From the IMG/VR virus record IMGVR_UViG_3300045988_163663: a stretch of 64,000 nt of DNA. One strand, given 5' to 3'. Under the pieces are notes generated by a model that searched no databases, was not told the origin of the DNA, and was given only the letters and a program-made list of their open reading frames with translations. Shown piece by piece: positions 27,527 through 60,193 of the stretch. This DNA comes from a virus. Position 1 is the first letter of the stretch. Every line of letters starts with the position of its first letter. Both the position numbers and the translations under genes were made by a program.

Positions 27527-27528
27527 TT

Positions 27529-34290: not shown

Positions 34291-34369
34291 TTTAAATTCT
34301 TGCCAAAATTGAATACTCGAAAATTTATAAAAAATTTGATATAATATATATAGAAAGGATGGGAGAGAT

Positions 34370-35727: not shown

Positions 35728-35728
35728 T

Positions 35729-37615: not shown

Positions 37616-37628
37616 GGAGGGAACTTCA

Positions 37629-38408: not shown

Positions 38409-38501
38409 ACGGTCAATTCTTTTTAGCTATTAAATTTGACTTTTCATATAAAATATAGTATTATTTACTAGCTATTTATTTTATATTAAAGGAGAATTAA
38501 T

Positions 38502-39089: not shown

Positions 39090-39115
39090 AATAATATTAA
39101 ATGAGGTAATATAAA

Positions 39116-39616: not shown

Positions 39617-39719
39617 ACATAGATAAAAAGGGATAAAGATTTGATTCTTTATCCCTTTTTTATTTTTATAAAAAAATATTATAAAATATTTATAGAAAAA
39701 ATAAAGGGAGTAAATAATC

Positions 39720-41363: not shown

Positions 41364-41434
41364 TTGAAATTTTTAAAATAAAATAATATAATATATACAT
41401 AAAATAAAGGAAAAATAAAAGGAGTTATTAAATT

Positions 41435-41830
41435 ATGGAAAAGAAGTTTACAAAGCGTGAGCTGTATGATGCTCTGATTGGCAAGCTGTGTGGTGAAGAG
41501 GTCGAAGTTGATGCACAGACTCTGGTTGATTTCTGTCAGACAGAGATTGATCGTATTGATCAGCGTAATGCCAAGGACCGTGAGAAGCGTGAAGCTAAGA
41601 AGGCTGAGCCTGATGTTGCACGTGAGAAGGTATTTGCCGCAGTTGATGAGCAGTTCCGCACTGCTGATGTAATTCACGATACCATTGATGATGAAGAGAT
41701 TACCCTTGGTAAGGTTCGTCATCGTCTGGCCGGTCTTGTCCGCGATGGTCTGGTGAAGAAGCAGGAGATGAAGGTCCCCGGTGGCGAGGGTGAAAAGACG
41801 CGGCACGCCATGTGCTACGCAAAGGCTTAA
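41435..41830 (+). CDS. hypothetical protein, paralog family X copy 3
   Basis: GC-richer island; architecture similar to 10279 and 13118. Confidence 0.45.
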   Translation: MEKKFTKRELYDALIGKLCGEEVEVDAQTLVDFCQTEIDRIDQRNAKDREKREAKKAEPDVAREKVFAAVDEQFRTADVIHDTIDDEEITLGKVRHRLAGLVRDGLVKKQEMKVPGGEGEKTRHAMCYAKA

Positions 41831-41997
41831 TAAATGAAGGGTCGGGAAACCGGCCTTTTTGTTTTGCCCTTTTAGGGTGCTGCTCCGGCCAAGGTCAAGC
41901 GTCTATACCGAACATCCAAATTGAAAAGCGTTTTAAGAATTTTTTTGACTAAATGCTAATAATATGGTAAAATAATATAAAAAAGGAGTAGATAAAA

Positions 41998-42825
41998 ATG
42001 AAAGTTTGTTTAAGACATAATCAAGAAGAACAATATCTCCAAAAGGCAGATTAGGTTGAGGTTAAATGGGCATATATTGACCAACTTCTTGATTTAGTAG
42101 AAAAATATCCTGATAAAGATTTTGTCATAGATGCTCCAAAAGGCAAACCAATGGATTGGAAAAGTATAGCCACTTGTAAGGCCGGCCTACATTAGGGTCA
42201 TACCTTTTATATCCGGCTACATGATTTAAATCCATTGCTTACATTACGCTGGATGGAGAAATACGATTTTAAATTTTTTTATAGTGAACCAGCAAAAACA
42301 TATTATGAGCTGTATAATCTAAAAAAATTAGGTGTATCATATGCTTATATTGATGCTCCTATTTTCTTTGATTTAAATGAAGTAAAAAAAATAGATATTC
42401 CATTAAGACTTGTGCCAAATCGGGCATATATTCAAGGGCATATTCCACAAATGAGTGGGTTACATGGCACTTGGGTTCGTCCGGAAAAACTTGATATTTA
42501 TGAACCATATTTTGATGTTTGTGAATTTGAAAATGATGGACCTACGCAAGAAAGAGCCTTCTACCGCATTTATTTTGAAGATAAGTCTTGGCCAAATGAC
42601 ATGAATTCATTAATTTTTGGACTTAATACTAATATTGATGATAGATTGGTGTATGAAGGTCTTGATGAAATGCGTCTTAATTGTAAACAAGTATGTGAAA
42701 CACCTAAGCCCTATTGTCAAATGTGTGATAAAGTATTATATTTTGAACGGGCCGGACGTCAATGGGCCAAGGAGTATATTGTCGAGCATGAGGGAGAAGA
42801 CCAGGAACGGATAAGCCCTAATTGA
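41998..42825 (+). CDS. hypothetical protein (TAG-containing)
   Basis: ATG 41998 with GGAG RBS; two in-frame TAG then in frame with listed ORF 42235. Confidence 0.4.
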
Positions 42826-42879
42826 TTATTTAATAAAATTATTATATAATATTTATATAATAATAGAAGGGAATAAGAA

Positions 42880-43878
42880 ATGGGTAAAAAAGTTTTAGTT
42901 CCTGATTTTACTGAAAATTGTAGAGGGCTTTTGGAAGGGCTATTTAAGATTAGTGAAGTAGGTCTTTTGAAAGCTCTTGGTGATTTTGTATCTAATAAAT
43001 ATTCTAATGTAGAAATTACAGAAGATTATGTATATGCTGAAGGTAATATTCCTGTTATGCTTATTGCACATGTAGATACTGTATTTAGACAGCCAATTCG
43101 TCAATTTACTTATAATGAGAAAAGAGCAGTTTATAAAGGCAAGGAAGGTCTTGGAGCAGACGATAGAGCAGGTGTTTTTGCGATTATTCAGATTTTACGC
43201 AAAAAGTATAGACCTTATGTTCTTTTTACAACAGATGAAGAAATGGGCGGCTATGGGGCACATGTATTTGTTGAAGCACATCCAGTAGCTCCAAATATTA
43301 AGTACATGATTGAGCTTGATAGAGCTGGTGAAAGAGATTGTGTCTTTTACGAGTGTGAAAATTTTACATTTGTAGATTATGTTGAAAGTTTTGGTTTTAG
43401 GCAAGCATTAGGCTCATTCACAGATATTAGTATTATTATGCCTGAATGGGAAATTGCCGGAGTAAATTTATCAGTTGGCTATCATCATGAACATACTCAA
43501 AATGAAGATTTACATATTAGAACATTGTATAATACAATTAATAAAGTATGTAAAATGCTCGATGATATTGAAAATGCAGATAAATATAAGTTTATTCCCA
43601 GTAAAGAATACCTTCAGTGGATTACATTAACTAATAAATATCATATGCCTTATGATTTTGATGATGATAAACTTCTTAATTGTAGTTTTTGTAATCAGTT
43701 GTATTATGAGTGGGAAGATTTCCCTCTTGATATTGATGGAGTAAAGGTTCATGTATGTCCTGAATGCTTGGCTCTTGACCCTAATATTCATCAATGTGAA
43801 AAATGTTATAATTTATTTTATTCAAATAATATGAAAGAAAGAGTATGTAATAAATGTCGAGTCCCTGTTGTAATTTAA
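42880..43878 (+). CDS. M42/M28-like metallopeptidase with C-terminal zinc-ribbons
   Basis: IAHVDTVF, GADDRAGV, TTDEEMGG metal-binding motifs; C-terminal CSFCN...CPEC...CEKC...CNKC. Confidence 0.5.
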   Translation: MGKKVLVPDFTENCRGLLEGLFKISEVGLLKALGDFVSNKYSNVEITEDYVYAEGNIPVMLIAHVDTVFRQPIRQFTYNEKRAVYKGKEGLGADDRAGVFAIIQILRKKYRPYVLFTTDEEMGGYGAHVFVEAHPVAPNIKYMIELDRAGERDCVFYECENFTFVDYVESFGFRQALGSFTDISIIMPEWEIAGVNLSVGYHHEHTQNEDLHIRTLYNTINKVCKMLDDIENADKYKFIPSKEYLQWITLTNKYHMPYDFDDDKLLNCSFCNQLYYEWEDFPLDIDGVKVHVCPECLALDPNIHQCEKCYNLFYSNNMKERVCNKCRVPVVI

Positions 43879-43958
43879 ATGAAATTAAAGAACAAGTAAA
43901 GAAGGTTATTGCCTATTCATAGGGGCTGGATATTAACCTTTTAAATATTGATAAATTA

Positions 43959-45280
43959 ATGAGCGATTGGGAAGAAAATAAATGTAAATTTTATAGTAGA
44001 CTTCCCGGCAATAAATTAATTTATCAAAGTCATACGCCTATTACAATGTCTATTTCAGAAGATGATAAAAAGGCTGAATTAGATTGTTTTATTGATAATA
44101 TTCGTTGGCGTTATAACTTATTTGAGTTAAAAAATTTTGTTGAAAATAATAGAGAAAATTTTTATAATAATATTTTAAGCGAAGATTATCCAATGGATAA
44201 TGGAACTATTATTCCAAAAGGAATGAAAATAATTAAAGCATTTAAATATTTTGTAGAAGATAAAGAAACTCTTACTGAAATACAAGATAAGGCAAGTATG
44301 CTTATTCAAAATACAAAAATTAATGGATATTTTTGTATGTCAGTTCATCCATTGGATTATCTTAGCCTAAGTGAAAACACACATAATTGGCGGTCATGCC
44401 ATGCACTTGATGGAGAATATCGTGCTGGTAATTTATCTTATATGACTGATAATTGTACAATTATATGTTATATTAAGAGCGAACATGACGCAGTTCTGCC
44501 CAGATTTCCAGATGATGTGCCGTGGGCAGATAAGAAGTGGCGTATGCTTCTTCATGTATCTAATGATGATACTATGATTATTTCAGGTCGTCACTATCCT
44601 TATGAAAGTAAAGGCTTACAAGATTTTGCACTTGAATTGTATGAAACATTTTTTGGGCAAGGATATAGTTTTACTGATTGGTGTCATGAAAAATATAATA
44701 CATTTACAGTAAATGATAAGATTATTTCTAATGATTGTCGTTTATTGCCTACTGGATATATTATGGCCCCAGATATTAAGATTATTATTGATCCAAAAAA
44801 TCCTTTACATTATAATGATCCTCTTCATTCTACTGTATATGATTATTGGTTTAGTATTGCTTATAGTGAACCTTATTGGCATGAAGAAGGCATTCCGCAA
44901 GATAAATTAATTCTTCCAAGAACTCGTACTACTACTAAAGTTAATATAGGACATGATGTAAAATGTTGTATTTGTGGTAAAAATGATTGTGTTTTAACAG
45001 ATACAATGCTTTGTATTGATTGCGAACTTAAATATGGTACAGAAGAAACAGAAGATTTTACTTTCTGTAGAGAATGTGGTAGACGTATCTATATTCCTGA
45101 AGCAATATCATTAGATGATGATGATGGTTATGTATGTCGCAATTGCGGAGACAATTATTAGATATGTGATAATTGTAATATGTATTATGATAAAAAAGAT
45201 TTAATTTATGATGAAGAAAACAATGCTTACTATTGTGAAGCTTGTTATGATGAAATTTTATTTGATAGGGAGAATGAATA
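43959..45280 (+). CDS. HPLDY-family protein with zinc-ribbons (paralog C)
   Basis: FCMSVHPLDYLSLSENTHNWRSCHALDGEYRAGNL; TAG at 45159 read through to TAA 45278. Confidence 0.5.
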
Positions 45281-45589
45281 ATGGCAAAAGGTAGTATTGC
45301 TAAAGATGCTGTTGTAGAAAAAATTGCAGAAGCATTTGGTGAAGATTTCCTTGGATCTTATGATAAAAAGTATTATGTGCGAGCTAAAGAAAATGGACAA
45401 TATATTCAGATTGCAATTAGTCTAACTTGTCCAAAAACGCCTGTTGAATCTTTTGGTTCTATGGATTTTGGTAATAATGAACTTAATTTTGAAGATGGAG
45501 CAACAATTCAGCCTGCGAAAAAGGCTACAGAAATTAGTCCAGAAGAAGAAGAAAATTTAAAAGCTTTAATTGAAAAGCTTGGTTTGTAA
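45281..45589 (+). CDS. hypothetical protein
   Basis: ORF 102 aa followed by hairpin terminator AGAGAAAGTCAAattGACTTTCTCT. Confidence 0.45.
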   Translation: MAKGSIAKDAVVEKIAEAFGEDFLGSYDKKYYVRAKENGQYIQIAISLTCPKTPVESFGSMDFGNNELNFEDGATIQPAKKATEISPEEEENLKALIEKLGL

Positions 45590-45696
45590 GAGAAAGTCAA
45601 ATTGACTTTCTCTTATTTTTATGTTATAATTATTTATATAGGGCATATTATATTAATTAAATAATTAAATTTCTTATATAAGAAAGGAATAAAAAT

Positions 45697-45978
45697 ATGA
45701 AGAAGATTATAATTCCTCAAGAAGAAGTAAATTATCTTTAGAAATTAAATTATGAAATTGAAGCTAGAAAAAATTTATGTCAATTTTTAATTAGACAAAA
45801 TATTAGAAATAAAGCTTTTGATGATTATCATAATGAGTATATAGAATTATTTGCTGAATATGAATTAGCTAAATTAGAATTAGAAAATAATTATATTAAA
45901 CCAGTAATTGGAAATCAAACTTGTAATTGGAATTTAGATTTTTAGACAAACGAGGTAAATATTGATGTTATTTCCTAA
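45697..45978 (+). CDS. small protein upstream of radical SAM gene (TAG-containing)
   Basis: 93 codons with 2 in-frame TAG; overlaps rSAM start by 14 nt. Confidence 0.4.
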
Positions 45979-47305
45979 GATAGTTAATATTCCTGAAGAA
46001 TTTTCTGATTTTATAAGTCGTTTATATTCTAATGATTGCTTAAATTCTTAGGCTGTATTTACATTAACTTTTTAGGTTACAGATGATTGTTGTCTAAATT
46101 GTGTTTATTGTTATCAAGGACATAAAGGAAAACATAAATTATCCTTTAATACAGCTAAATAGATGATTGATTAGATACTAACAAGAGACAGTAAAGTTAT
46201 TAATTATATTGACTCTTATAAAATACCAGGAGTAGTAATAGAATTTATAGGTGGAGAGCCATTTTTAGAAATTGAATTAATTGATTAGATTACTGATTAT
46301 TTTATTAATAAAATGATTGAATTGCGGCATCCTTGGGCCACTAAATATAAAATTTCAATTAGTTCTAATGGTATTTTATATTTTGAACCAAAAGTACAAG
46401 AGTATATTAAAAAAAATAATGAAAATTTAAGTTTATCAATTTCTATTGATGGAAATAAAAAATTACATGATGCTTGTAGAGTTTTCCCTGATGGTAGTGG
46501 TAGTTATGATAAAGCATTGTCCGCCGCATTACATTATAGCCATAATTATAACAAATGGATCGGGAGTAAAATGACTATCTCTCCATTTAATATAGATTAT
46601 TTATATGACGCTGTTTTAGAAATGATAAACAATGGTTATAGTCAAATCAATCTAAATTGTGTGTATGAAAAAGGTTGGGAACTTAACCATGCCACTACAT
46701 TATATTATTAGTTAAAAAAAATTGCTGATTATTTATTAAATAATGATTTGTGGGATAAAGTTTATTTATCTATTTTTTATATTAATGATGGAAGTAAAAA
46801 TTTATCTAATGATAATTGGTGCGGCGGGAATGGTCGTATGTTAGCCTTAAATTGGAAAGGTAAATATTATCCCTGTTTACGTTATATGGAAGATAGCATA
46901 AGTAATCAGCCAGAATATTATATTGGAGATATTTATTAGGGAATAGGCCAAGATAATTTAACCATCAATAGATTAAAAGATTTATCTGAAATAACAGTTA
47001 TTAGTCAATCTCCTCAAAAATGTTTAGATTGTGAAATTTCTGGAGGATGCTCTTGGTGTACAGCTTATAATTATCAAGAAACAGGTAATGTTAATAAAAG
47101 AGTTACTTATATTTGTGATATGCATTATGCTACAGTTCTAGCTTCTTTATATTATTTAAATTCTATTTTAAAAAAAATAAACTCGAATAAACGATTTAAA
47201 TTTAATGGAGATATGGAAAAAGCATTAAAAATTATCTCTTAGGATGAATATAATATAATAAAGGAGGCAATGACAAATGAAAATAGGCACGACAATAACT
47301 TCTGA
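45965..47305 (+). CDS. radical SAM / SPASM-domain peptide maturase (TAG-containing)
   Basis: DDCCLNCVYCYQ (CxxxCxxC), GGEPFLE, C-terminal CGGNG...C...CLDCEISGGCSWC SPASM-type Cys; 6 in-frame TAG; TGA at 47303. Confidence 0.65.
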
Positions 47306-47927
47306 TAGATTCAATGAATTAAAGAAAAAAATAAAGGCTGAATGTTTACGTCGTAAATATATAGGTAGTGTAAGTTCATATGGAGGGACTTCTTATGATT
47401 ATACTACTTAGCCTAATAATGGAAAAGTTATTTCAAAAGAACATATAACAAAACTGGTAGAACCTATGGCGGCAATAAATATTGAAAATCAGAATGAAAA
47501 TATAAATGTTATTAAAGATGATGATTTAAGTACATTAGAGGCAAAAATTACAGCTTATCAAGCTATGGGATTAACTGATTCGAATACTGGATGTTCAGCT
47601 TATTGCACTGGATTATGTTCTACTAGTTGTAGTGAAAGTTGTGGAGTACAATGTCAGGGAACTTGTTTAGGCAGTTGTAAGAATACTTGCCAAGGAGGCT
47701 GCCAAAACACTTGCAGAGGCGGATGTCGAAGCAGTTGTAGTGGCAGTTGTGATGGATGCAGTGGTTCTTGCTCAGGTGGATGCCAGACTGGGTGTAGCGG
47801 ATGCAGCGGTAGCTGTACAAGACATTGTGCTAACGATTGTACTGGATTGTGTGGAGGAAGTTGTTCTGGATTATGCACAAGTTGTACTGGCACATGTAGT
47901 GGAACTGGTAGGAATGAACCATTATAA
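47277..47927 (+). CDS. Cys-rich C-x3-C repeat protein (SCIFF/ranthipeptide-like)
   Basis: AAGGAGG RBS 8 nt upstream; about 30 Cys in CSAYCTGLCSTSCSESCGVQCQGTCLGSC... repeats; one in-frame TAG at 47409; alternative start 47466. Confidence 0.6.
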
Positions 47928-47973
47928 TTTAAAAACATTTATTGAAAATATATATAATTGTAAAATATATTAT

Positions 47974-48615
47974 ATGTATCTTATACAAAATAATATTTTA
48001 TTTTGTATAAGTGATTATAAAAATATAAACTTTCAAAAATATGATATGGATATTTAGATTTTATCTATTTATGAATATTTATTTCAAAAGTATATTTTAC
48101 ATAAAGATATATTAAAACAATATAAAGGTATAGAATTATATAAAATTATGGAAATTCAAGATAAAATTTTTATTAATAGATATAAATTATTATTGTAGAT
48201 TATTAATAATAATTATAATTTTGATAATTAGTTAATATACACTGATTTTAATAATTTTAATTTTGAACAAAATATTAGTTATATAAATTATTGTTTAAAA
48301 TTACTATTTAATAATTTTAAAAAAATAGATAAACAATTTTGGAAAATTTTAGATTAGATTTATTTTTTAATTAATGGTAAAACTAATTTATTTTTATTGT
48401 TGGGAAATTTTTATTTGAATAAAAGTAATTTATAGCAATTTACTGAAGAAATAAAAAAAATTCCTGGAATTAAAGAATAGCTCTCTTTTAGTTATACAGC
48501 TTTAAATTTAGCTATTGAAATTGATAAAGTTGCAGAAAATAAAAATTATCTTAATGAATTAATTGAAATTATTGATAATCATTCACAAGAAAAAATTTAT
48601 AAATTTGATATTTAA
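47974..48615 (+). CDS. AT-rich hypothetical protein (8 in-frame TAG)
   Basis: No TAA/TGA for 213 codons in roughly 20 percent GC sequence; only TAG interrupts. Confidence 0.45.
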
Positions 48616-48689
48616 TAAAAATTAATATATAATATATATACAAAATAAAGAAAATAAAGACTTTAACAGCAAAGAAATGGACAGTAAAT

Positions 48690-48733
48690 CCGTCGCGAAT
48701 GCTACGCAGGTTCGAATCCTGCCCTCCCCACCA
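48690..48733 (+). ncRNA. tRNA 3'-half-like element (T-arm, acceptor 3' strand, CCA) without upstream 5' half
   Basis: GCAGG-TTCGAAT-CCTGC CCTCCCC A CCA; GGCGGAGG 6 nt downstream; own upstream promoter motif. Confidence 0.35.
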
Positions 48734-48884
48734 CTATATGGCGGAGGTAGGGAAGCGGTTAAACCCAGCGGAACCAAACCAAATAAGTCTTGTTTGAATA
48801 AAATAATTATTTGATTTTTAATAAAAAATATTATATAATATTTATATGAAAAGAGAAAGGCTTTTACAGCAACTTAAACTTTTT

Positions 48885-48959
48885 TCCGTGGTCGAATAAC
48901 TGGATAATTCATCAGAGTTAATTCTGAAAATAAGGATTCAAATTCCTTCCTTGGAGCCA
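48885..48959 (+). tRNA. noncanonical tRNA (6-nt anticodon loop GTTAAT)
   Basis: Acceptor TCCGTGG/CCTTGGA (1 mismatch), D arm GAAT..ATTC, anticodon stem TCAGA/TCTGA, T arm AAGGA-TTCAAAT-TCCTT, GCCA end. Confidence 0.4.
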
Positions 48960-49050
48960 AGTATAAAAAGTCTTGGGTAAATTTCTTAATTTGAAAAAAT
49001 TAAAAAAATATAATATAATATATAAGTAATCAATAAGAAATTAAATAAAT

Positions 49051-49199
49051 GCTCTCGTAGCTCAATTGGTCAGAGCCGGCGACTTATCCAAAATTAGTTT
49101 AAATGGTAAAATAGTTTATGCGCAAGAAAGATGTAAGTTCAAATCTAACATTTTGGGCCAAATCGCCAGATGTGGGTTCAAATCCCGACGGGAGCACCA
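49051..49199 (+). tRNA. tRNA with about 80-nt insertion in anticodon loop
   Basis: GCTCTCG-TA-GCTCaattggtcaGAGC, anticodon stem GGCGA(49078)...TCGCC(49163), T arm and acceptor CGGGAGC-A-CCA. Confidence 0.5.
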
Positions 49200-49225
49200 T
49201 ATTCCAATAGAAAGGAATTAAAATA

Positions 49226-49465
49226 ATGAAGTTGACAAATATTAAGCAGGTTGAAGATTTTATTTCAGCAGTTAATCGTGCTCATAGTAATGTATGGCTG
49301 GTTAGTCCGCAGGGCGATAGATACAATATGAAATCTGCACTTTCACAGTATATTGCACTTGGTGCATTACTTGGTCAGCATGGCGATGAACTGGAACTTT
49401 TTTGTGATAGTAAGCAAGATGAAGGTTTATTTATTGAATTTTTTGTTCGTCATTCTGAAGTTTAA
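49226..49465 (+). CDS. hypothetical protein
   Basis: ORF 79 aa with GAAAGGAATTAAAATAATG leader. Confidence 0.45.
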   Translation: MKLTNIKQVEDFISAVNRAHSNVWLVSPQGDRYNMKSALSQYIALGALLGQHGDELELFCDSKQDEGLFIEFFVRHSEV

Positions 49466-49520
49466 TAAATTTGATTTTTAATAAAAATATTATTATATTA
49501 TATAGAGAGTGAGGGAAAGA

Positions 49521-50480
49521 ATGACTATTATTGAATTATTTGCGGGAATTGGGACATAGATTTCAGCTTTGGTTAAAATTGATCCAAATATTAGATCAAT
49601 AGGTATTAGCGAAATTGATGAACGACCATTGAAAGCATATAAAGTTTTGAATGGTGAATATAATAATTTTGGTGATATCACAAAAATTGATATTTTACCC
49701 TATGCAGATATTTGGACTTATTCTTTCCCTTGTACTGATTTATCTATTGCAGGGAAGCAAGAAGGTTTTCAAGGAAAAAATTCTTCATTAATTTATGAGG
49801 TATATCGTCTCTTGCTTTCTTCTCCAAAGCCAAAAATTCTTTTAATGGAAAATGTGGCCAATATTTGTAATAATACTTTTATGCCAAAATTTCAAGAGTG
49901 GATTAATAGTTTAGCTGAATTAGGTTATGTATCTAGCTGGAAGAAAATAAAAGCTTATGAATATGGCGGAGCAACTATTAGAGATCGTGTATTCATGGTT
50001 TCAGTAATTTCTCCTTTAAAAAAGTTTATTTTCCCTTTAGCTGAAAATGTTAAAACTACTTTAAAAGATTTTTTAGAGCCAATTAACGAAGAATATTTCA
50101 TTGATAGTTATGATGGCCCAAGTGATATTACTACACCATATTATAATGGAGCTAAAAAACTCTGTGATTATAAAAATGGTGGTCAAGGAAATCGAATTTA
50201 TTCTATATTTGGGCAAGGAGTTACATTAACTGCTTCTGGTGGAGGAAAAGCCGGATCAAGCGGTGGTTTGTATCTTCGTAATAATAGTATTTATAAACTT
50301 ACTCCAATTGAGATTTGTAAAATAATGGGTTGGACTAAAGCAGAAGCAGAAAAGATTTGTTCTGTTTTAACCCCTAGAGAAGTGGGTTTTTGCTTGGGCA
50401 ATGCCATTGATAGAAATGTGTTAATTCATATTTTTAAAGGGATAAAGGAACAATATTATGATGAATTGGGAGAAAAGTGA
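49521..50480 (+). CDS. DNA (cytosine-5)-methyltransferase (TAG-containing)
   Basis: ELFAGIGT(Q) motif I, FPCTDLS motif IV, ENV motif VI, RDRVF motif VIII, GNAI motif X; TAG at 49557. Confidence 0.7.
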
Positions 50481-51084
50481 AAAGAAAGCATTTGAATGGT
50501 TTAAAAATAACTATGATAATGATGCGATTTATCAAGGACGTAATGATTCTACTATTTCAGATATTTATTCTCCTTTATATAATTGCTATATTGAAGTAAA
50601 AGATATTACTAATGGTGCTCGATGCGGGCAATTTACTAAAAGTACCATCAGTAATAACCCATATGCTGAAGCTATTTATTTGGGTAAAAATGATGAAGAA
50701 ACTTGTATAAATTTTGTAAAAGAGCATTATAGAGCTAAACGAGTAGGAGCTTTTATCATTATTAATAATAATAATATTTCTCTTGTGGCTTTTGATGATT
50801 TTTTTAATAATTATACTTTTGAAATTCAAAAACCTTATTGCAAAAGAAGCGGTACTTCATCGGCTCCAATTAAAGATAAAGAAACTCTTTTAAAATTTAA
50901 TACAGCATTTTATCAAGAAAATAATAAAGTTTTTTGTTTTGATCAAAATTTATTTGGTACTTATTGTTCAGTATTTAATCCTTTTGATTATTTTATCAGT
51001 AAAACAACTGGTGAATTAAGAAAAAGAAGTAATACTAATAATATGACTTGGCATATTGTAATTAAAGAAAAATTGAAAAATTAA
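50458..51084 (+). CDS. hypothetical protein, possible PD-(D/E)xK nuclease partner of the methyltransferase
   Basis: ATGATG overlaps MTase stop; SDIYSPLYNCYIEVKD resembles D...(E)xK. Confidence 0.35.
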   Translation: MMNWEKSEKKAFEWFKNNYDNDAIYQGRNDSTISDIYSPLYNCYIEVKDITNGARCGQFTKSTISNNPYAEAIYLGKNDEETCINFVKEHYRAKRVGAFIIINNNNISLVAFDDFFNNYTFEIQKPYCKRSGTSSAPIKDKETLLKFNTAFYQENNKVFCFDQNLFGTYCSVFNPFDYFISKTTGELRKRSNTNNMTWHIVIKEKLKN

Positions 51085-51141
51085 AAAAAATATTATAAAA
51101 TATATATACAAAATAAATGAGAAATAAATTCTCATTTGTAT

Positions 51142-51218
51142 GGGACAGTAGCTTACGAGGTCGGAGCATTGGTCTGAAAAACCAAAGGATGGAGGCTCGA
51201 TACCTCCCTGTCCCACCA
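51142..51218 (+). tRNA. tRNA-Phe (GAA)
   Basis: GGGACAG/CTGTCCC acceptor, anticodon loop CTGAAAA, CCA encoded. Confidence 0.65.
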
Positions 51219-51500
51219 ATTGGTCTTACACATGGGGTTTCCGATTTGAACTAGGCAGATTAGTCACCTGCCGTTGGCAATAGACCAATTAAAAATAAAC
51301 TGAGGCAAAGGGAAATCGGGTAGTTATGATGAACTTCATAATGAAATCCTCTTGTAATCAAGCTAATTGGGAGAGAGGTAGCACGGGAACGGGGAGAAGC
51401 GTGCTATAAAAGGTGAAATACTTCTTTCCACCATAAGCCGGTGTAGCCGAATGGCATAGGCGAATGGAATTGAACTGAAAATTTTTTGGTTCAATTCCAT
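51219..51500 (+). ncRNA. structured RNA candidate
   Basis: TTGGTCT...AGACCAA, GGCAG-9-CTGCC, TAGCACG-14-CGTGCTA, GGAATTGAAC-13-GTTCAATTCC; no ORF. Confidence 0.3.
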
Positions 51501-51548
51501 TAATGAATAATTTTTAATTTCTAATATATTATGAAAGGAGAGATTGTT

Positions 51549-52016
51549 ATGGCTCGTTCAGATATTTTAGAAAAAGAAAAAGAAATTCGTTAGTGGATAA
51601 ACGAAGAAAAATCTAAACGTTATATATGTGAATAGTTGCATTGTAAACCTGAAACTTTAAATTCTTATTTGGAGAAAATGAATATTGAATATAAGGGATA
51701 GCCTTATAAAAAAGGATAGAATAAAAATCCTCGATGTTATAAGCCAGCTATTTATTATATTGATAATCATAAGTATATTAGCTCTTCTGTTTTAAGACAA
51801 AAATTAGTAAAAGATGGATTGAAAAAAGACAAATGTGAAATTTGTGGTATTTCTATGTGGCAAGGAATTAAATTACCTTTAGAATTACATCATAAAAATG
51901 GAAACCATTTTGATAATGATTTAAATAATCTACAAATTTTATGTCCTAATTGTCATTCAATTCAAAATGGAAATAGTGGAGCAAATATCGGTAAATACGC
52001 GGGATTGCTGGAATAG
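51549..52016 (+). CDS. HNH homing endonuclease (TAG-containing)
   Basis: CEICG...HHKNGNHFDNDLNNLQILCPNCH; 5 in-frame TAG upstream. Confidence 0.55.
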
Positions 52017-52083
52017 GTAGACAACTCATCTTTAGACGGTGAGGCCGACAGGTGTGAGGGTCCGAGTCCCTCATCCCGCACCA
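51999..52083 (+). tRNA. tRNA-Leu (TAG anticodon), type II
   Basis: GCGGGAT/ATCCCGC, anticodon loop TTTAGAC, long variable arm, CCA. Confidence 0.6.
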
Positions 52084-52373
52084 ATCATATTCAAAAGAAA
52101 AATTATTGTTGTGATTGTGGAAAAGAGATATGTTTAAAAGCTATTAGATGTAAATCTTGTGCATCTAAATTTAGACAAAATTCTAAATCTCCAGATAGAG
52201 AAATTTTAAAAGAATTAATTAGAACTACACCATTTGTAACTATAGGGAAAATGTATGAAGTTTCTGATAATGCTGTCAGAAAATGGTGTAAAAATTATGA
52301 TTTACCTTATTAGTCATTAAAAATTAAAAAAATTTCTGATGAAGATTGGAAAAATATTTAATATATAAGGTGT

Positions 52374-52401
52374 GAAGGTTCGAATCCTTTCACCGGTACC
52401 A
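52374..52401 (+). ncRNA. tRNA 3'-half-like element
   Basis: GAAGG-TTCGAAT-CCTTT CACCGGT A CCA; no 5' half found. Confidence 0.3.
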
Positions 52402-52469
52402 ACAGTGAAGTAGTAGCTATACTCATTATAATCAAGGCTCGGTGGTTGGTGGCTCCATCGTTATGTAAA

Positions 52470-52546
52470 TAAGCCATATGTATATTACTTCTTGGTGTAA
52501 TGGAAGCATACTGCCTGAAAGAGGCGGAGGTATTGGTTCGATCCCG
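52470..52546 (+). tRNA. tRNA-like gene, unresolved
   Basis: T arm ATTGG-TTCGATC-CCGAT at 52522; anticodon-like CTGCC-TGAAAGA-GGCGG; acceptor pairing imperfect. Confidence 0.3.
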
Positions 52547-52894
52547 ATAGAAGGAGTAATTAAAGCTAGGAAATGATAATCGCCTAAATAAATAAAGGAT
52601 TATTATTAAAGATTATTTAGATTAAGGAAGCGGTTAAAGTTATTACTTACTTGATTATAAAATAACATGACCGCAAGACGAGTGTTTGAAGCTTGTCTAT
52701 AAACAAATTCTTCATATGTTGTCTTTTATACTTACTCTTTGGCTGTTTCTTGACATATAAGTAAAAGCGGAAAGGGAGTTAAAGGTTCAGCTAAAAAACC
52801 GGTTTGTTTTTTGATAAGATTTTAAAAATTAGGTGGCAAAATCTTATTTGAGTGACGCTGCTCAAGAGGGTCCGGAACCTCTAAAATGCGATAT

Positions 52895-53027
52895 GCGCCA
52901 GTGGCCAAGTGGTATGGCACCTGCCTTTGTGGAATTGATGTAAGTAGCATTTTAATGTATTGGTTCAAATCCAATATTCCGCACCATAAGCAGGGCAACG
53001 CGGGTTCGATCCCCGCCTGGCGCACCA
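52895..53027 (+). tRNA. tRNA-Gln-like (UUG) with about 58-nt insertion in anticodon loop
   Basis: GCGCCAG...CTGGCGC-A-CCA; D arm GCCAAGTGGTATGGC as in tRNA-Gln; CCTGC(52920)+CTTTG ... AA+GCAGG(52990) gives loop CTTTGAA after removing insert. Confidence 0.5.
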
Positions 53028-53233
53028 TTTGAGTTAAAAAGTATAAATCTTATAAACTCCCTGTAAAATCAGGCGGACAGATGGACCGATAGTACCATTA
53101 TTGTGGAAGTCAGGCAGGTCCATTTTACTGGGCTTACTGTAAAAGCCAGTTTAATACACCCTCCATACCCAATGAGGAATTTTTATAAAGGTCTATTTAA
53201 TTTTTCTTGGTAGTTTAGTTAAATAGACTGTAT

Positions 53234-53310
53234 GCGGGATTAGCTCAGTTGGTTAGAGCGTTTGGTTTACACCCAAGAGGTCATTGGTTCGAATCCAATA
53301 TCCTGCACCA
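53234..53310 (+). tRNA. tRNA-Val (TAC)
   Basis: Canonical cloverleaf, loop TTTACAC, G3:U70, CCA. Confidence 0.65.
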
Positions 53311-53376
53311 ATAAATTTGAAAATTTAAAAAAAATATTATATAATATATATATAATAATAAAGGAGATATTTGAAA

Positions 53377-53543
53377 TGGCAACTACTAAGAAACCTGCAA
53401 TTAAAATGGACAGCACAGAGTTGAACGAGTATCTTCTGTTCCGCCGTCGTAGATCAATTGTGCCTGCCAAGAAAGGTAAGGGCATGGAATATGATAGAGC
53501 GAAGGAAAAAGAAAAATCTGAAAAAATGATTTCTGATGAATAA
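53377..53543 (+). CDS. small basic protein
   Basis: AAAGGAGAT RBS; MATTKKPAIK... Confidence 0.4.
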
Positions 53544-53547
53544 ATAT

Positions 53548-53620
53548 GCTCCCATCGACAAGTGGTCTAAGTCACCAGCCTTTCACGCTGGAGTCGCCGG
53601 TTCAAATCCGGCTGGGAGTA
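53548..53620 (+). tRNA. tRNA-Glu (TTC)
   Basis: GCTCCCA/TGGGAGT, loop CTTTCAC, T arm GCCGG-TTCAAAT-CCGGC; no CCA. Confidence 0.55.
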
Positions 53621-53704
53621 GAGATACAAATTCTACAACCTTCACGCGGTGTATCTTGTTTTAACTAATGTAGAATAAAGTAAATAAAAAGGAGCTGTTT
53701 AATT

Positions 53705-54328
53705 ATGGCATACATTTATTAGATTATTAATGATATAAATTAGAAAATTTATGTTGGTAAAACTGAATTTTCTATTGAAAAACGTTTTAAAGAACATTGT
53801 AAAGATGCTTTTAGAGAGCGCAATGAAAAACGTCCATTATATTCAGCAATGCGAAAATATGGAGTAGAACATTTTCATATTGAACTAATTGAAGAAACTG
53901 ATGATGCTAATAATCGAGAAACTTATTGGATTGAAAAATTAGGTTCTTTTAAATGGGGATATAATGCTACAATAGGCGGAGATGGTAAAAAGTATCTTGA
54001 TTATGATTTAATTATTGCTTCTTATCAAGAAATTAAAAATATTGAAGAAACTGCTCGTAAATTAGGAATTTCTTCTGATAGTGTAGAAAGAATTCTTAAA
54101 GAAAAAAAAGAAAAAATTTATTCTCAACAAGAAGTTAATTTAGTTAAATCAGGTAAAAAAGTTGCTCAATGTGATAAAAAAACTGGAAAAATTTTAAATA
54201 TATTTCCATCTATTGGAAGTGCAGGTAGAGCTATTAATAAACCTGATATTACTCATATAAGCGCTGTATGTTTAGGTAAAAGACAAAGTGCTTATGGTTA
54301 TAAATGGAAATTTATTGAAAATAATTAA
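53705..54328 (+). CDS. GIY-YIG homing endonuclease (TAG-containing)
   Basis: MAYIY(TAG)IINDIN(TAG)KIYVGKT aligns with I-TevI GIYQIKN...KVYVGS, putting TAG at Gln. Confidence 0.6.
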
Positions 54329-54342
54329 AATTATTCTTATAT

Positions 54343-54419
54343 GGTGCTATAGTTCAGTTGGCTAGAATGTCGGACTGTCTCTCCGAAGGTCAGGGGTTCG
54401 AGTCCCCTTAGCATCGCCA
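54343..54419 (+). tRNA. tRNA-Asp (GTC)
   Basis: Loop CTGTCTC, T arm AGGGG-TTCGAGT-CCCCT, GCCA end. Confidence 0.65.
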
Positions 54420-54511
54420 TTCGTTTTCTCGATATAAGCGATTTTGTTACATAGAACTTGATAGAGCGTTCTATTAATCTGGTTAGATTAAGTTTTATAA
54501 CTATCATATTT

Positions 54512-54587
54512 GGGGCACGGGACTGCATGGAGTGGTCGTCTCCCTTGCAAGGAGAAAAGCAGATGAGTTCGATTCTCATGTGTTCCA
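54512..54587 (+). tRNA. tRNA-Ala (TGC)
   Basis: G3:U70, loop CTTGCAA, T arm ATGAG-TTCGATT-CTCAT; no CCA. Confidence 0.55.
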
Positions 54588-54726
54588 GTCATCTAAGATC
54601 CACAACCGCCACGAGGTAGATGATGGGTAATGCTAATAGTGGACAAAAATAAAAATCGGGCAAAGTTAATTAAACTCCTCAAAAATTTTGCTAAATATAA
54701 TAGAAGGAAAAAAGGAGTTGAATTAA

Positions 54727-55359
54727 ATGCCTAGAAAATTAACTCAAGAAGAATTTGAACAAAGAGTTTATAAATGTGTAGGGGATAAATATTTTGTTAT
54801 AAGTGAATATAAAGGAAAATCTAAACCAATAGATTTAAAATGCAATATTCATGATATTGTTTTTCAAGCATCCGCAGAATGTTTTATGCGAGGTCCAAAA
54901 GAAGTAAGATGCTCTTGCCCTAAATGTTCAGAAGAAAAGAAAAATGAAAAATTTTCTGCAAATAGAACTGAATTAGAATGTGCTTATTGTGGAAAGAAAT
55001 TTATTCGTCCAAATTCTAAATTGAATAATTCAAAAAGTGGAATATATTTTTGCTGTAGAGAACATAAAGATTTAGCTCAACGGATAGAGTTTGGTTTGAA
55101 AGAAATTCAACCAAATCATTATGGAAATAATATTGAAAGTATATATACTTATCGTAAAAATGCTTTTAAATATTATCCTCATAAATGTGCTATCTGTGGT
55201 TGGGATGAAGATAAAGATATTTTAGAAGTTCATCATATTAATGAAAATAGAGAACACAATGAATTAGAGAATTTAATCATATTATGTCCTATTTGTCATA
55301 AAAAATTAACTTCTCATAAATATAAATTAATTAATAGGGAAAAAATTATTTCTTATTAA
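54727..55359 (+). CDS. HNH homing endonuclease
   Basis: CAICGWDEDKDILEVHHINENREHNELENLIILCPICH. Confidence 0.6.
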   Translation: MPRKLTQEEFEQRVYKCVGDKYFVISEYKGKSKPIDLKCNIHDIVFQASAECFMRGPKEVRCSCPKCSEEKKNEKFSANRTELECAYCGKKFIRPNSKLNNSKSGIYFCCREHKDLAQRIEFGLKEIQPNHYGNNIESIYTYRKNAFKYYPHKCAICGWDEDKDILEVHHINENREHNELENLIILCPICHKKLTSHKYKLINREKIISY

Positions 55360-55382
55360 TTTATGAAAAATTTATAATATTT

Positions 55383-55425
55383 GGAGCTTGAGGCAAAGCG
55401 AGTTCGACTCTCGCAAGTTCCACCA
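55383..55425 (+). ncRNA. 43-nt tRNA-like minihelix (acceptor stem + T arm only)
   Basis: GGAGCTT-gaggcaaa-GCGAG-TTCGACT-CTCGC-AAGTTCC-A-CCA. Confidence 0.3.
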
Positions 55426-55477
55426 TTAAGTGTGATATATTCCAAACACGTAGGGTGGTAAGCACACGGGTTTTCTA

Positions 55478-55553
55478 GAAGCCTTCCCTATGAATATGGA
55501 TGCATAGCTCAGTTGGTAGAGCAATTGACTGTTAATCAATGGGTCGGAGGATC
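55478..55553 (+). tRNA. tRNA-Asn (GTT)
   Basis: GGATGCA-TA-GCTCAGTTGGTAGAGC, loop CTGTTAA, GCCA end; unusual T loop ATCATAC. Confidence 0.6.
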
Positions 55554-55677
55554 ATACCCTTCTGCATCCGCCACCGCACTCGCGGAAAACATACAACTCA
55601 ACTGGTGCATAGAACTTGATGGAGCGTTCTATTAGTCTGATGCCTGCATTAGATTAAGTTTTATAACCATCATATTT

Positions 55678-55751
55678 GGGGACATAGTTTATGGTAGGAA
55701 AACGTTGAATTTAATTCAAAGTCGAGGGTGCGATTCCCTCTGGCTCCACCA
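55678..55751 (+). tRNA. tRNA with anticodon loop ATTTAAT (UUA), shortened 15-nt anticodon arm
   Basis: GGGGACA-TA-GTTT..AAAC, TTGA-ATTTAAT-TCAA, T arm GAGGG-TGCGATT-CCCTC, TGGCTCC-A-CCA; one acceptor mismatch. Confidence 0.35.
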
Positions 55752-55885
55752 TTTATGAAAGACAATACAGCAATTATAAATTTGCTTTGGGAGCCGTGTG
55801 TTGTAGGTTCGAGTCCTACTGTCTGGTTGAAGATCGGATATAGCGTAATTGGTAGCGCAACGTATAAAAATTGTCTTGTTAATAT

Positions 55886-55961
55886 TGCGGGATCGTCAAG
55901 TGGTTAAGACACCAGCCTCATAAACTGGTTATCGTGGGTTCGAATCCCACTCCCGCAACCA
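55886..55961 (+). tRNA. tRNA-Met (CAT)
   Basis: TGCGGGA/TCCCGCA, loop CTCATAA, T arm GTGGG-TTCGAAT-CCCAC, CCA. Confidence 0.55.
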
Positions 55962-56085
55962 TATGAAAAGCCCACACAGCAATTTTTAATAAGGTTAAAT
56001 AAGAAATTCTGCAAAAATTTTTTAGAGTTGGTTCAAATCCAGCAAATGATTTTAGGGCTTTGTTAAAATTGTTAAGGAGAAAATA

Positions 56086-56271
56086 ATGAAGTTCAATCCA
56101 GGAGATAAGGTCTGGTGTAAGAAGTATGGCAAGGGTAAGTGCCGCAAGACTGATGATAAGGACAATTTCATGACTTATCTTTTCAGATTTTATGATGGTA
56201 CTCTGATTTGGATGCCAAAACGTCAGGCTGAACATTTTGTAAGAGTTCGTTCCACCGAGGCCACGGTGTGA
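56086..56271 (+). CDS. small basic protein
   Basis: ORF 61 aa, AAGGAGAAAATAATG RBS, TGA stop. Confidence 0.4.
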   Translation: MKFNPGDKVWCKKYGKGKCRKTDDKDNFMTYLFRFYDGTLIWMPKRQAEHFVRVRSTEATV

Positions 56272-56430
56272 ATATAAAGTCCGGTTATAGGAAATCCTGT
56301 CATTAGGCGGCAGGCTACCGGTAATCCTTTCTTATATATTTAAATATGTAAGGAACAAAAACTATACAATAGATAGAGTTTTTACGCCTTGGCGCAATGC
56401 TTGTTTTTTACTATCTATTTTTTTATATTC

Positions 56431-56517
56431 GGAGTCGTGGGATAATGGTATTCCAATGGATTGCTAATCCATCCTACCTCTTGGGTAGTCCGCGTTCGAG
56501 TCGCGGCGATTCCGCCA
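56431..56517 (+). tRNA. tRNA-Ser (GCT), type II
   Basis: GGAGTCG/CGATTCC, loop TTGCTAA, 17-nt variable arm, GCCA. Confidence 0.6.
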
Positions 56518-56523
56518 TTATAT

Positions 56524-56611
56524 GTAGGAGTGCCAGAGTGGTCGATTGGGTTAGTCTCCAAAACTAATTGTAGCTGCACATCCAGGGTTCGAATCCCTTG
56601 CTCCTATGCCA
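56524..56611 (+). tRNA. type II tRNA with apparent CCA anticodon (Trp-reading?)
   Basis: GTAGGAG/CTCCTAT-G-CCA; anticodon stem TTAGT/ACTAA, loop CTCCAAA; 14-nt variable arm. Confidence 0.4.
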
Positions 56612-57014
56612 TACGTATTAAGACTCATTTTCAGCAAACTTTTGCCTGTAAAGGCTCTACAATACTTATTTATTACTAATAGATGAAAAAGTATAATAAA
56701 GAAAATAAAGTATATTTTGAAAAGTTTTTTCTTTTTAGCTAGTTTAGTAAACTAAATTTCGCATTTTTTCTTCTGGCTTTTCAATGAGTCTTGTTTATTA
56801 AAATAATTGGTATCGCTAAGCTTTATGGTAATTGTGGTGTATTTAAATCATAGATAGTTAAGGGTCTATAGCCAATTATGGTATGCGGAATTAACTTGCC
56901 CGGCGGTAAGCCTTGTCTTGAAAACAAGTGGTCCTGTGACAGGGATGGGGATCGACACCTCAGTTCCGCGCCACTCGTTTCAAATTCGTTCATTGCATTT
57001 CATCCTTTCTATAA

Positions 57015-57053
57015 AGATGGACTGATTAGATTAATCAGTCCATCTTTTTTTTT
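57015..57053 (+). terminator. rho-independent terminator
   Basis: AGATGGACTGATTagaTTAATCAGTCCATCT + T9. Confidence 0.6.
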
Positions 57054-57336
57054 ATATATTTTAAAGACAGTAGGTTATAAGTTGCTCTGGCCGGCTTGGA
57101 CCATTAAAACCAAATGCTTAAATTAAAATTCCATTTAAGAAATTTTCGGTCCAACAGGTATAGAGCAATATAAAATAATTTTAAATATGAAAGGAGAAGG
57201 ACAATATGAAAATGTTTATTCTTTCATATAAGGGCGGCAAAGATGGCGGCGATATTGACAAAGAAGATACTTCCAAGTCAACAGGCGGCTGGGATGGCGG
57301 CTCTATAGATGATGATTAAAGAAAGGAGAACACAAG

Positions 57337-58410
57337 ATGGCTGAAATTATTAAGTTAAGACGCGGTAAATCAACCAGTTGGTCTAAAAAGAATATAATTC
57401 TTGCAGCTGGTGAAATCGGCGTAGAGCTTGATACACATTAGATTAAAGTCGGCGATGGTTCAACCCCTTGGAATGAACTATCTTATGTAGGCGGAACTAA
57501 AGTTGTTAATGTTCAAGAATACACTGACAATCCAGCAGTTGTAGATGGCGTGCCTTATCAATCTATTGATGTAGCATTTATGAAGGCTCCAGCTGGAAGT
57601 ACAATTCGTCTTAATGCTAACTTTGATAACAGTGTTTCTATTGATAAAGAATTAACTATTGAATTAAATGGTAATGATATTATCAATAATGAAAAAACTC
57701 CAATAGATATCAAAGTAGGCGGCGATTTAACTATCAAGGGCCAAGGCACTATTGAATGCAATAAAAATAATAATGCCGCAGTTTTTAATAATGGTAATAT
57801 TACTATTAATAATGGTAAATTACAACGTACTACTGACGTATCAGGTAATGGCTATTATACTGCCGTTAATCATGGCACTATGATAATCAATGGCGGCATG
57901 TTTATGAGCGGCGGTGAATTTTCCAGTATGATTGAAAATGGATACTGGGATTATAATGCCGGTAATACTACAAACGGCTATGTTCAAGGTCAAAATGCTG
58001 AAATGCCTACATTAACTATTAATGATGGTACATTCGCTGGCGGCTTATATGCTATAAAAAATGATGATAATGCTGTTTTAAATATTAATGGCGGCACATT
58101 CTATAATACTATTCTTGCTAATGGTAAGTCATTGACTATCACTGATGGATATTTTGAAAATAGTAAACCAAGTCAAGGTGAATATAATTTATATCTTCGT
58201 AAATTAAGTGAAGATATAAATCCTCAAAATACATATATCAGTGGCGGCACATTTATTACTGCACAAGATAGCAATTTCAAAGTTGAAGGCGAACCGCATA
58301 TTGAAATTAGCGGTGGCCGTTTTAATAGAGAATTAGATCCTTCTTATCTAGCTCCTGGCTATAGACAAGTACTTGTCAATGGCTTCTATACTGTCTAGAA
58401 GGAGGAATAA
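57337..58410 (+). CDS. tail-fibre-like protein with shared N-terminal module (TAG-containing)
   Basis: MAEIIKLRRGKSTSW...GEIGVELDTH(TAG)IKVGDGSTPW; beta-helix-like GG repeats; TAG at 57439 and 58396. Confidence 0.5.
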
Positions 58411-58413
58411 TCT

Positions 58414-58929
58414 ATGGCTGATATCATCAAGTTCAAAAGAGGTCGATCAACTACATGGCGCGAAAAGAACTTATTACTTAAGGATGGCGAGCCTGGATTT
58501 GAATTAGATACTCATAAACTGAAAATTGGTGATGGTAAAACCTTATGGAATGATTTACCATATATCGGTGGCGAAAGTGGTACAATTGATCTTCCTGATA
58601 ATGTAATGGAATTTTTAGGCACAGTTGATACACTTCCAGCTACTGCTGAAGATGGAGAAATGTGTATTTATGATGGCAAATTATATATTTATGATGGTAA
58701 ATGGACAACTACAGAAACTTCTTCTTCAGCACAAAATTCTTTCAATTCTTTAGTAGATGCAATTAACTATATTACTTAGCATAATTGTGTTGGTCAAATT
58801 GTATCTATCTTTTAGAATAATAAATGGTTGCCTTATATTGTAGATGTAAATAATAATCTTGTACCTATTCAATATGGAGAAGATCATTATGATATTCTTA
58901 ATGGCGGCAACGCAAATACTCTTAATTAA
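58414..58929 (+). CDS. tail-fibre-module protein (TAG-containing)
   Basis: MADIIKFKRGRSTTW...ELDTHKLKIGDGKTLW; two in-frame TAG near 3' end. Confidence 0.45.
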
Positions 58930-58951
58930 TTTTATAGGAGGAAAATAATTT

Positions 58952-60169: not shown

Positions 60170-60193
60170 TTTATAAAGGAGGAATAATATAAT

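Follow-up and report, generated by a model that had tools for sequence, protein, structure and literature searches.

The 64,000-nucleotide stretch of viral DNA analysed here (IMG/VR record IMGVR_UViG_3300045988_163663; hereafter the window) carries, at positions 49521-51084, two overlapping genes that we think likely to be a functional Type IIP restriction-modification (R-M) pair of the HhaI type: a C5-cytosine DNA methyltransferase (MTase), whose reading frame contains a stop codon recoded as glutamine, and a PD-(D/E)xK endonuclease. In the same reading the carrier would be a gut phage of about 190 kb that decodes TAG as Gln and probably infects Clostridia, and the nuclease would likely be an offensive enzyme. 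Because the GCGC content of this phage and its relatives follows the nuclease/MTase genotype, the nuclease is most likely active on GCGC in vivo. The features on which the argument turns are these.

49521..50480, + strand: C5-cytosine DNA MTase gene, M.HhaI-like; ATG at 49521 to TGA at 50478-50480, 319 codons with TAG read as Gln
49557..49559, + strand: in-frame TAG, MTase codon 13, read as Gln; directly after FAGIGT (FAGIGT*ISAL), where orthologues have Gln codons
50458..51084, + strand: restriction endonuclease gene, short-form R.HhaI homologue of the PD-(D/E)xK type; 208 aa, ATG at 50458, TAA at 51082-51084
50458..50480, + strand: overlap of the MTase 3' end with the endonuclease 5' end, 23 nt, from the sequence

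A methyltransferase and an endonuclease of the HhaI type

An earlier, sequence-only reading of this DNA had recognized the key C5-MTase motifs, and they are indeed found in order: F7-A-G-I-G11 (motif I, FxGxG), P70-C71 (motif IV, PC with the catalytic Cys), E110-N-V112 (motif VI, ENV), R154-D-R156 (motif VIII, RxR) and G293-N294 (motif X, GN). Translated with TAG as Gln, the protein matches Pfam PF00145 over profile positions 1-323 of 324 (expect value, E, 1.7e-40; 139.8 bits against a cut-off of 22) and scores 122.9 bits with TIGR00675, whose cut-off is 100.65. Its best solved relative is M.HhaI (E 4e-31), in an alignment that extends through the target-recognition domain, where GGQ222GNR225IYS of the window stands opposite GGQGERIYS, and T235LTASGGG242 opposite TLSAYGGG. 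Equivalents of M.HhaI Q237 and R240, whose roles are given in PMC7026639, and of the 250-257 loop are present in this domain, and from the resemblance we predict GCGC as the target and its inner cytosine as the methylated base. The ratio of nonsynonymous to synonymous substitution rates (dN/dS) is 0.06-0.11 between the window MTase and its close relatives and 0.04-0.19 overall; such strong purifying selection means that the gene is not a pseudogene.

That the downstream open reading frame (ORF) might encode a restriction nuclease had also been suggested, and the match to R.HhaI by sequence, profile and fold now bears this out. Among solved structures, only R.HhaI (PDB 6UKE) is matched significantly by the single sequence in phmmer (E 8.9e-6), a family profile of 37 homologues reaches R.HhaI at E 1.2e-11, and the PADLOC Type II restriction endonuclease model matches at E 4.6e-6. 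An AlphaFold2 model (predicted local distance difference test, pLDDT, 90.4) has a sole significant Foldseek match in the PDB, 6UKE_X (E 4.7e-13, probability 1.00, template-modelling score 0.69, 23% identity), and the remaining PD-(D/E)xK nucleases rank far below it. Pfam and NCBIfam gave no match for the 208-aa ORF. The label Holliday-junction resolvase, which comes from a weak PHROGs match only, was set aside, the ORF being identified through the PDB sequence, PADLOC and fold searches.

R.HhaI has the catalytic residues E7, D34, E46 and K48 and the recognition residues Q53, Q56, R155 and K157-K158-S159-G160-S161 (PMC7026639). E8, D35, E46 and K48 of the window protein correspond to HhaI E7, D34, E46 and K48, and they are invariant or nearly so both in the 37 members of the family profile and in the family at large. 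The motif had been written as D-x11-E-V-K, and this needs correction: it is S34-D35-x10-E46-V47-K48, unlike that of R.HhaI, where the spacing is x11 (SD-x11-EAK). In the profile alignment Q58 and K129-R130-S131-G132-T133 align with HhaI recognition residues, the string lying opposite K157-K158-S159-G160-S161; Q58 and the K, S and G of the string are invariant, or almost so, in the nuclease family. We infer that the nuclease cuts GCGC. Its dN/dS is mostly 0.14-0.30, with 0.51 for the most divergent pair (window and L003; related loci are numbered with the prefix L). An exhaustive profile search returned 227 cluster representatives, which come in short (about 205 aa) and long (about 260 aa) forms. 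GenBank phage records held no relative of the nuclease ORF and none of window positions 30000-46000; a pattern scan of the whole IMG/VR collection found the nuclease once only, as a distant homologue, and a scan of metagenomes of the Joint Genome Institute (JGI) found six loci.

The endonuclease gene lies in the +1 frame relative to the MTase and contains no TAG codon. The stop of the MTase had been said to overlap the ATG of the 208-aa ORF: the two genes do overlap, but the ATG sits 20 nt before the stop. Elsewhere the order and spacing vary, with a spacer of 15-18 nt in L001 and L003 and a reversed order, nuclease then MTase with a 4-nt overlap, in L012 and L025. In each of the 14 loci where the two families occur together their genes are neighbours, in both orders and across divergent relatives; the MTase is nevertheless dispensable in five lineages. 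The adjacency, and the fact that M.HhaI is the best solved relative of the MTase, support the view that the two look like a cognate Type II R-M pair. A complete system of this kind in a phage had been called unusual, and a survey that counted 9 R-M systems in 831 phage genomes (PMC4176335) agrees.

GCGC content follows genotype among related phages

A gene for a DUF2828/DUF7788 protein of about 500 aa lies directly 3' of the nuclease in most relatives, whereas the window clade has tRNA genes there instead; the protein marks a group of large phages of 130-200 kb in IMG/VR, with 570 matching stretches. Control loci from related phages of 130-200 kb were located through this conserved neighbour, and a locus was classed as nuclease-only when it had the nuclease and no MTase within ±10 kb. 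Observed and expected (O/E) numbers of GCGC sites were as follows.

Nuclease without MTase, L009 and L010/L011: 0 sites against 26.7, 30.6 and 16.9 expected
Nuclease without MTase, L028, L029 and L030: 0 sites against 14.6, 17.4 and 7.2 expected
MTase and nuclease, L027 (fetched alongside L028-L030): 9 sites against 30 expected
Frameshifted nuclease with intact MTase, L023: 47 sites against 43.7 expected, O/E 1.07
Both genes intact, 11 loci: median O/E 0.42
Neither gene, 70 distinct IMG/VR loci, among L031-L110: median O/E 0.80, range 0.25-1.33, always at least 4 sites

The five nuclease-only contigs (L009, L010, L028, L029 and L030) together hold no GCGC against 96.5 expected, and since L028-L030 were examined after the pattern of L009 and L010 was known, they were a test of a prediction, which came out true. 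Only in this class is GCGC wholly absent, in 5 of its 5 contigs and in none of the 76 others (Fisher p = 4e-8); in every nuclease-only locus GCGC ranks first, as most depleted, of 136 tetranucleotides, and it is the only one eliminated there. Where both genes are present, depletion of GCGC is stronger than in loci with neither (Mann-Whitney p = 7e-5 when loci are compared, 0.005 when lineages are). The frameshift in the L023 nuclease (10001-10622), after codon ~151, recurs as an identical lesion in L024 (2042-2663), in a second independent sample. From this correspondence we conclude that the nuclease probably acts on GCGC in infected cells, with enough activity to make any unprotected site fatal for the phage.

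Even at E 10, L009-L011, which are nuclease-only loci, showed no MTase remnant; since L009 shares synteny with the stretch upstream of the L003 MTase, the gene is cleanly absent. In a neighbour-joining tree of the nucleases, MTase-less and MTase-bearing lineages are interleaved, with L003/L009 and L027/L030 as sister pairs, and L009 and L010 have both retained the nuclease at a synonymous divergence (dS) of 1.3, with dN/dS 0.21. This suggests that the MTase was lost or gained repeatedly over a long time.

The same lineages bear on a more conventional view, in which the pair is a defensive or addictive cassette of a temperate phage, as in P1 and prophage systems, and serves lysogen protection or prophage stabilisation and not lytic use. 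The density of R-M systems in prophages is about 8-fold that in sequenced phage genomes (PMC4176335), which speaks for such a role. Five lineages, however, retain the nuclease alone under purifying selection, and a toxin without its antidote cannot serve as an addiction module. The setting, a region of tRNA, homing-endonuclease and tail-fibre genes in a phage of about 190 kb, argues in the same direction, and so does a Pfam scan of 17 window ORFs, which was not exhaustive and showed no integrase-like match. We consider this account unlikely.

GCGC in the window

1..49119: tract without a single GCGC, where about 68 sites would be expected
49120..61566: the only 11 GCGC sites of the window, presumed methylation targets; about 19 expected in 49120-64000

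In the whole window GCGC occurs 11 times against 87 expected and ranks first in depletion among the 136 strand-merged tetranucleotides. The sites lie at 49120, 52895, 53020, 53818, 54261, 55855, 56392, 56968, 58458, 60360 and 61563; five fall in tRNA-like genes or homing-endonuclease ORFs, three are intergenic in the tRNA island and three are in tail-fibre-like ORFs. Other tetranucleotides are depleted in 1-49119 without being eliminated, namely GATC (32 against 129 expected), CTAG (20 against 69) and GGCC (42 against 95), and their depletion is much weaker beyond 49120, which suggests a separate history of the tRNA/tail-fibre region. The near-absence of GCGC despite an intact MTase, and the clustering of the remaining sites where tRNA, homing-endonuclease and tail-fibre genes lie, could reflect incomplete or late protection, a recent gain of the MTase by a genome already purged, or imported DNA.

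Since GATC, GGCC and CTAG are depleted as well, host restriction pressure seems to act too, and one may ask whether it accounts for everything: a host enzyme that cuts GCGC would impose the avoidance, the MTase would be an anti-restriction device, and the nuclease would be inactive or otherwise used, as a homing-type or DNA-processing enzyme. Besides the three further depleted motifs in 1-49119, the O/E of 0.25 in some relatives with neither gene and the tolerance of GCGC by phages with an intact MTase fit this account. It does not explain why zero GCGC is found solely in nuclease-without-MTase loci, why GCGC alone is eliminated there, or why the presence of both genes goes with stronger depletion than in neither-gene relatives, despite the MTase; and the nuclease, with invariant catalytic residues and dN/dS mostly about 0.2-0.3, does not look like an idle gene. 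Host restriction as the whole explanation is, in our view, very unlikely.

The first of the eleven sites, 49120, is held by a tRNA-like gene at 49051-49199 (+), just 5' of the MTase, within a 73-nt anticodon-loop insertion that is itself tRNA-like. In relatives this position is taken by tRNA-like genes whose anticodon loops are 6 nt long (L017 8461-8532, L018 8341-8411 and L021 2214-2285).

TAG is read as glutamine

The in-frame TAG at codon 13 was overlooked in the sequence-only reading. Under the standard code the MTase ORF can start only at TTG 49569, without the motif I that binds S-adenosylmethionine (SAM), and the enzyme is full length only if the TAG at 49557 is decoded as Gln. Among orthologues encoded on metagenomic contigs of related phages, codon 13 is CAG or CAA (Gln) in those of L001, L008, L012, L019, L022, L023 and L025, and TAG in those of L003-L007, L015-L018, L021 and L027. 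Genes for tRNA(CUA) were found in the relatives L001, L003, L009 (two copies), L010 and L027.

The window as a whole is written in the same code. With TAG as sense, the ORFs add up to 27,768 aa, up from 20,658, and many on the + strand are joined, for example 39714-41363, 45959-47305 (8 TAGs) and 60188-62884 (5 TAGs); of the window's 49 ORFs, 23 depend on reading through TAG. The share of TAG among Gln codons is 16% for all window ORFs and about 29% for those in 46-64 kb. The phage of the window thus decodes TAG as Gln (genetic code 15), as this computation shows.

Among the genes that need read-through is a phage gene for SAM synthetase (MetK) at 26046-27203 (+), with all three MetK Pfam domains. 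Its in-frame TAG at 26106, codon 21, encodes the Gln of the DQVSD motif, which we take to be conserved among MetK sequences, and the standard code would shorten its N-terminus.

The TAG might instead be a nonsense mutation, leaving the MTase a pseudogene and the nuclease solitary in the window phage. The in-frame TAG itself could be taken so, and the near-absence of GCGC over 49 kb resembles the MTase-less relatives. Against this, TAG13 is kept in three clades whose MTases are 74-98% identical to that of the window at dN/dS 0.06-0.19, close to half of the window ORFs need the same read-through, MetK at a conserved Gln among them, and eleven GCGC sites remain near the MTase gene. We regard decay of the MTase as very unlikely.

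A separate observation concerns a tRNA gene at 55678-55748 (+), missed by ARAGORN, matched by Rfam at 48.5 bits and kept in L016 and L006. Its anticodon arm is UUGAA-UUUAA-UUCAA, with a 5-nt loop in the Rfam alignment or a 7-nt loop with anticodon UUA, and it has G3:U70 and A73. Judged by these features it could be a candidate unusual suppressor tRNA, with no CUA anticodon.

Proposed mechanism

Taken together, we believe that the two genes can be placed in a simple scheme. Production of the MTase would depend on the decoding of TAG as Gln, and the enzyme would mark phage GCGC with 5-methylcytosine, while a monomeric 208-aa PD-(D/E)xK endonuclease would cleave GCGC that is unmethylated. Self-protection of the phage would be twofold, by methylation and by near-total removal of GCGC from its own genome, and in related phages that have lost the MTase complete avoidance of the site would substitute for it. 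The host chromosome, co-infecting phages and plasmids would remain cleavable, for which reason the nuclease is most likely offensive, serving host shut-off, nucleotide salvage or competitor exclusion; its use against host or competitor DNA seems to us probable. The phage probably infects a member of the Clostridia: two short contigs were binned in metagenome-assembled genomes of Clostridium, and Shine-Dalgarno-like sequences precede start codons, both of them weak pointers to the host.

Several points weigh against this picture. The GCGC specificity of both enzymes is a prediction from sequence and genome composition. Within the 64-kb window no suppressor tRNA(CUA) was found. For each nuclease-only contig 11-20 kb were read, so that an MTase or GCGC elsewhere on these contigs is possible. 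Moderate depletion also occurs in some relatives that lack both genes, and their O/E down to 0.25 implies that host restriction pressure contributes to GCGC avoidance. The nuclease, at 208 against 258 aa, is 50 aa shorter than its HhaI counterpart, lacking a stretch of about 32 aa of HhaI domain 2 and the C-terminal helix, with the region aligned to the third domain present. Finally, HhaI reads the outer G:C by an R155/Q53 pair that is not kept in this form, the window having C128 and R55 at these positions. Long forms have Q and R at the Q53/R155 positions and the phage clade has R and a non-Arg residue; R55 in place of R155 may therefore be a correlated swap of the guanine-contacting arginine, and presumably a functionally equivalent one.

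A more elaborate model would make stop-codon recoding a translational timer within the R-M system. The TAG-free endonuclease would be translated once transcribed and would attack host or competitor DNA first; the MTase (TAG13) and SAM synthetase (TAG21) would follow suppressor tRNA activity, in time for progeny DNA. The unprotected interval would expose unmethylated replicated phage DNA, and so would lead to GCGC depletion even in phages with both genes; some lineages might then have completed the purge and dropped the MTase, leaving a solitary 4-bp cutter that is safe by site avoidance alone. The nuclease gene is indeed TAG-free in about 17 loci examined, and the MTase has TAG at codon 13 and in some loci also at 125 or 133. 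TAG avoidance by the nuclease was considered as evidence of early expression and given up, since the statistics fall short: none of the 5 Gln codons in the window nuclease is TAG, at a local TAG share of about 29% (P about 0.18, not significant), and the count of separate TAG positions across the family, at least 3 in the MTase against 0 in the nuclease, is not significant either. Early expression is thus hypothetical. GCGC O/E is 0.33, 0.58 and 0.30 with TAG13 MTases and 0.79, 0.35 and 0.69 with Gln13 MTases, in lineages too few for a conclusion. We offer the timer as a tentative and rather doubtful addition to the scheme.

Comparison with known systems

The nearest solved relatives of both proteins are those of the HhaI system of Haemophilus haemolyticus (R.HhaI, PDB 6UKE-6UKI, which cuts GCG^C; M.HhaI, PDB 1MHT). 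The two nucleases share the catalytic E/D/E/K and the K-(K/R)-S-G-(S/T) string, with GCGC predicted for the phage enzyme, and the two MTases share the Gln and Arg recognition residues (Q237, R240) and a TL.A.GGG loop. The phage pair differs from HhaI in its phage carrier, the recoded TAG in its MTase, the 23% identity of its nuclease, the short form of 208 aa, the x10 spacing and an Arg at 55 and not at 155.

The genome that carries PacI is GC-rich, and an AT-only site is rare there by composition. PacI, found in Pseudomonas alcaligenes, is a restriction enzyme without an MTase, tolerated because its carrier genome is without its sites (PMC3488263). The PacI site is 8 bp and AT-only, whereas in the phage case the site is of 4 bp, would be expected every ~0.7-1.6 kb and is gone from the phage DNA. 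For the offensive use of restriction enzymes by viruses there are precedents in chloroviruses and marseilleviruses. Chlorovirus R-M systems (for example CviAI and CviAII of PBCV-1) resemble the phage pair in that adjacent, virus-encoded MTase and nuclease genes act on a 4-bp target; according to the sections of PMC7019647 consulted, their nucleases break down the DNA of the host in the first minutes after infection and the viral DNA is methylated. They differ in belonging to viruses of eukaryotes, which package the nucleases in their virions, and neither site purge nor MTase-less derivatives are noted for chloroviruses in those sections. In the GATC system of melbournevirus (Marseilleviridae) the nuclease is transcribed about 15 min ahead of the MTase, and the proposed use of the system is to attack co-infecting viruses (PMC7253447). 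There the order of expression is set by transcription, whereas in the phage pair any delay would be translational, via the TAG, and is hypothetical. For pandoraviruses the lost motif is reportedly AGCT, with no cause identified. A pandoravirus report describes one tetranucleotide as wholly lost from the viral genome (bioRxiv 10.1101/712018).

Phages that recode TAG as Gln (code 15) have been described (PMC10879173 and PMC11210395), and the window phage group has in common with them the in-frame TAG at conserved Gln positions and the suppressor tRNA(CUA), here in relatives. The literature we searched describes no R-M system with a recoded codon in one partner and none in a stop-codon-recoded phage. 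The combination of a short-form HhaI-type nuclease, a recoded MTase and a phage carrier is new, each of these kinds being known before.

Surroundings of the gene pair

49471..49499, + strand: promoter-like TTGATT-17-TATATT, 5' of the MTase; 9 of 12 matches in a consensus scan, weak evidence
49510..49516, + strand: Shine-Dalgarno-like TGAGGGA, 5-11 nt 5' of the MTase ATG, assigned by its letters only
51531-52361 and 54727-55359, + strand: HNH homing-endonuclease-like ORFs in the tRNA cluster
52895-53027, + strand: tRNA-like gene with an insertion, in the tRNA cluster
53705-54328, + strand: NUMOD1-domain ORF, GIY-YIG-like by its N-terminal sequence

In the promoter and terminator scan the region barely exceeds shuffled expectation. 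An upstream ORF of 79 aa (49226-49465) was considered as a controller protein and dropped, having no Pfam match. Downstream of the pair, the tRNA cluster (51142-56611, +) holds at least 13 tRNA genes interleaved with homing-endonuclease-like ORFs, and beyond it lie genes for tail-fibre-like proteins at 57337-58410, 58952-60169 and 60194-62884 (+), two with Mtd_N (the N-terminal domain of major tropism determinant) and all with in-frame TAG.

Upstream, a radical-SAM enzyme gene (45965-47305, +) shows weak matches to Pfam Radical_SAM and Fer4_12 and has 8 in-frame TAG codons; it is followed by an ORF of 153 aa (47466-47927, +), in which a dense Cys-x3-Cys repeat, without a Pfam match, takes up the ~110 residues at the C-terminus. 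By their sequences the two could be a maturase and peptide precursor, a pair like those of ribosomally synthesized and post-translationally modified peptides (RiPPs). Three paralogues of 475-572 aa (32626-34344, 39720-41363 and 43854-45281, all +) share the core SIHPLDY[LM][TS][ML]S[DE]N...W.SC and have Cys-rich, zinc-finger-like C-termini. A Pfam scan of the first two (32626-34344 and 39720-41363) gave no match, and the second needs read-through of the TAG at 40608.

Implications

Complete R-M systems are rare in phages, and this one is hidden from standard-code annotation, which cuts off the start of the MTase. For the HhaI family, the phage nuclease represents a compact enzyme of 208 aa, and its Arg55-for-Arg155 replacement bears on how monomeric HhaI-type enzymes read the outer base pair. 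Were the timer model true, the pair would be a concrete case of recoding that orders the production of two antagonistic enzymes. Regardless of timing, four genotypes within one phage group (both genes, nuclease alone, broken nuclease with MTase, and neither) predict GCGC content, and this points to a viral self/non-self discrimination in which a 4-bp site is wholly removed instead of methylated.

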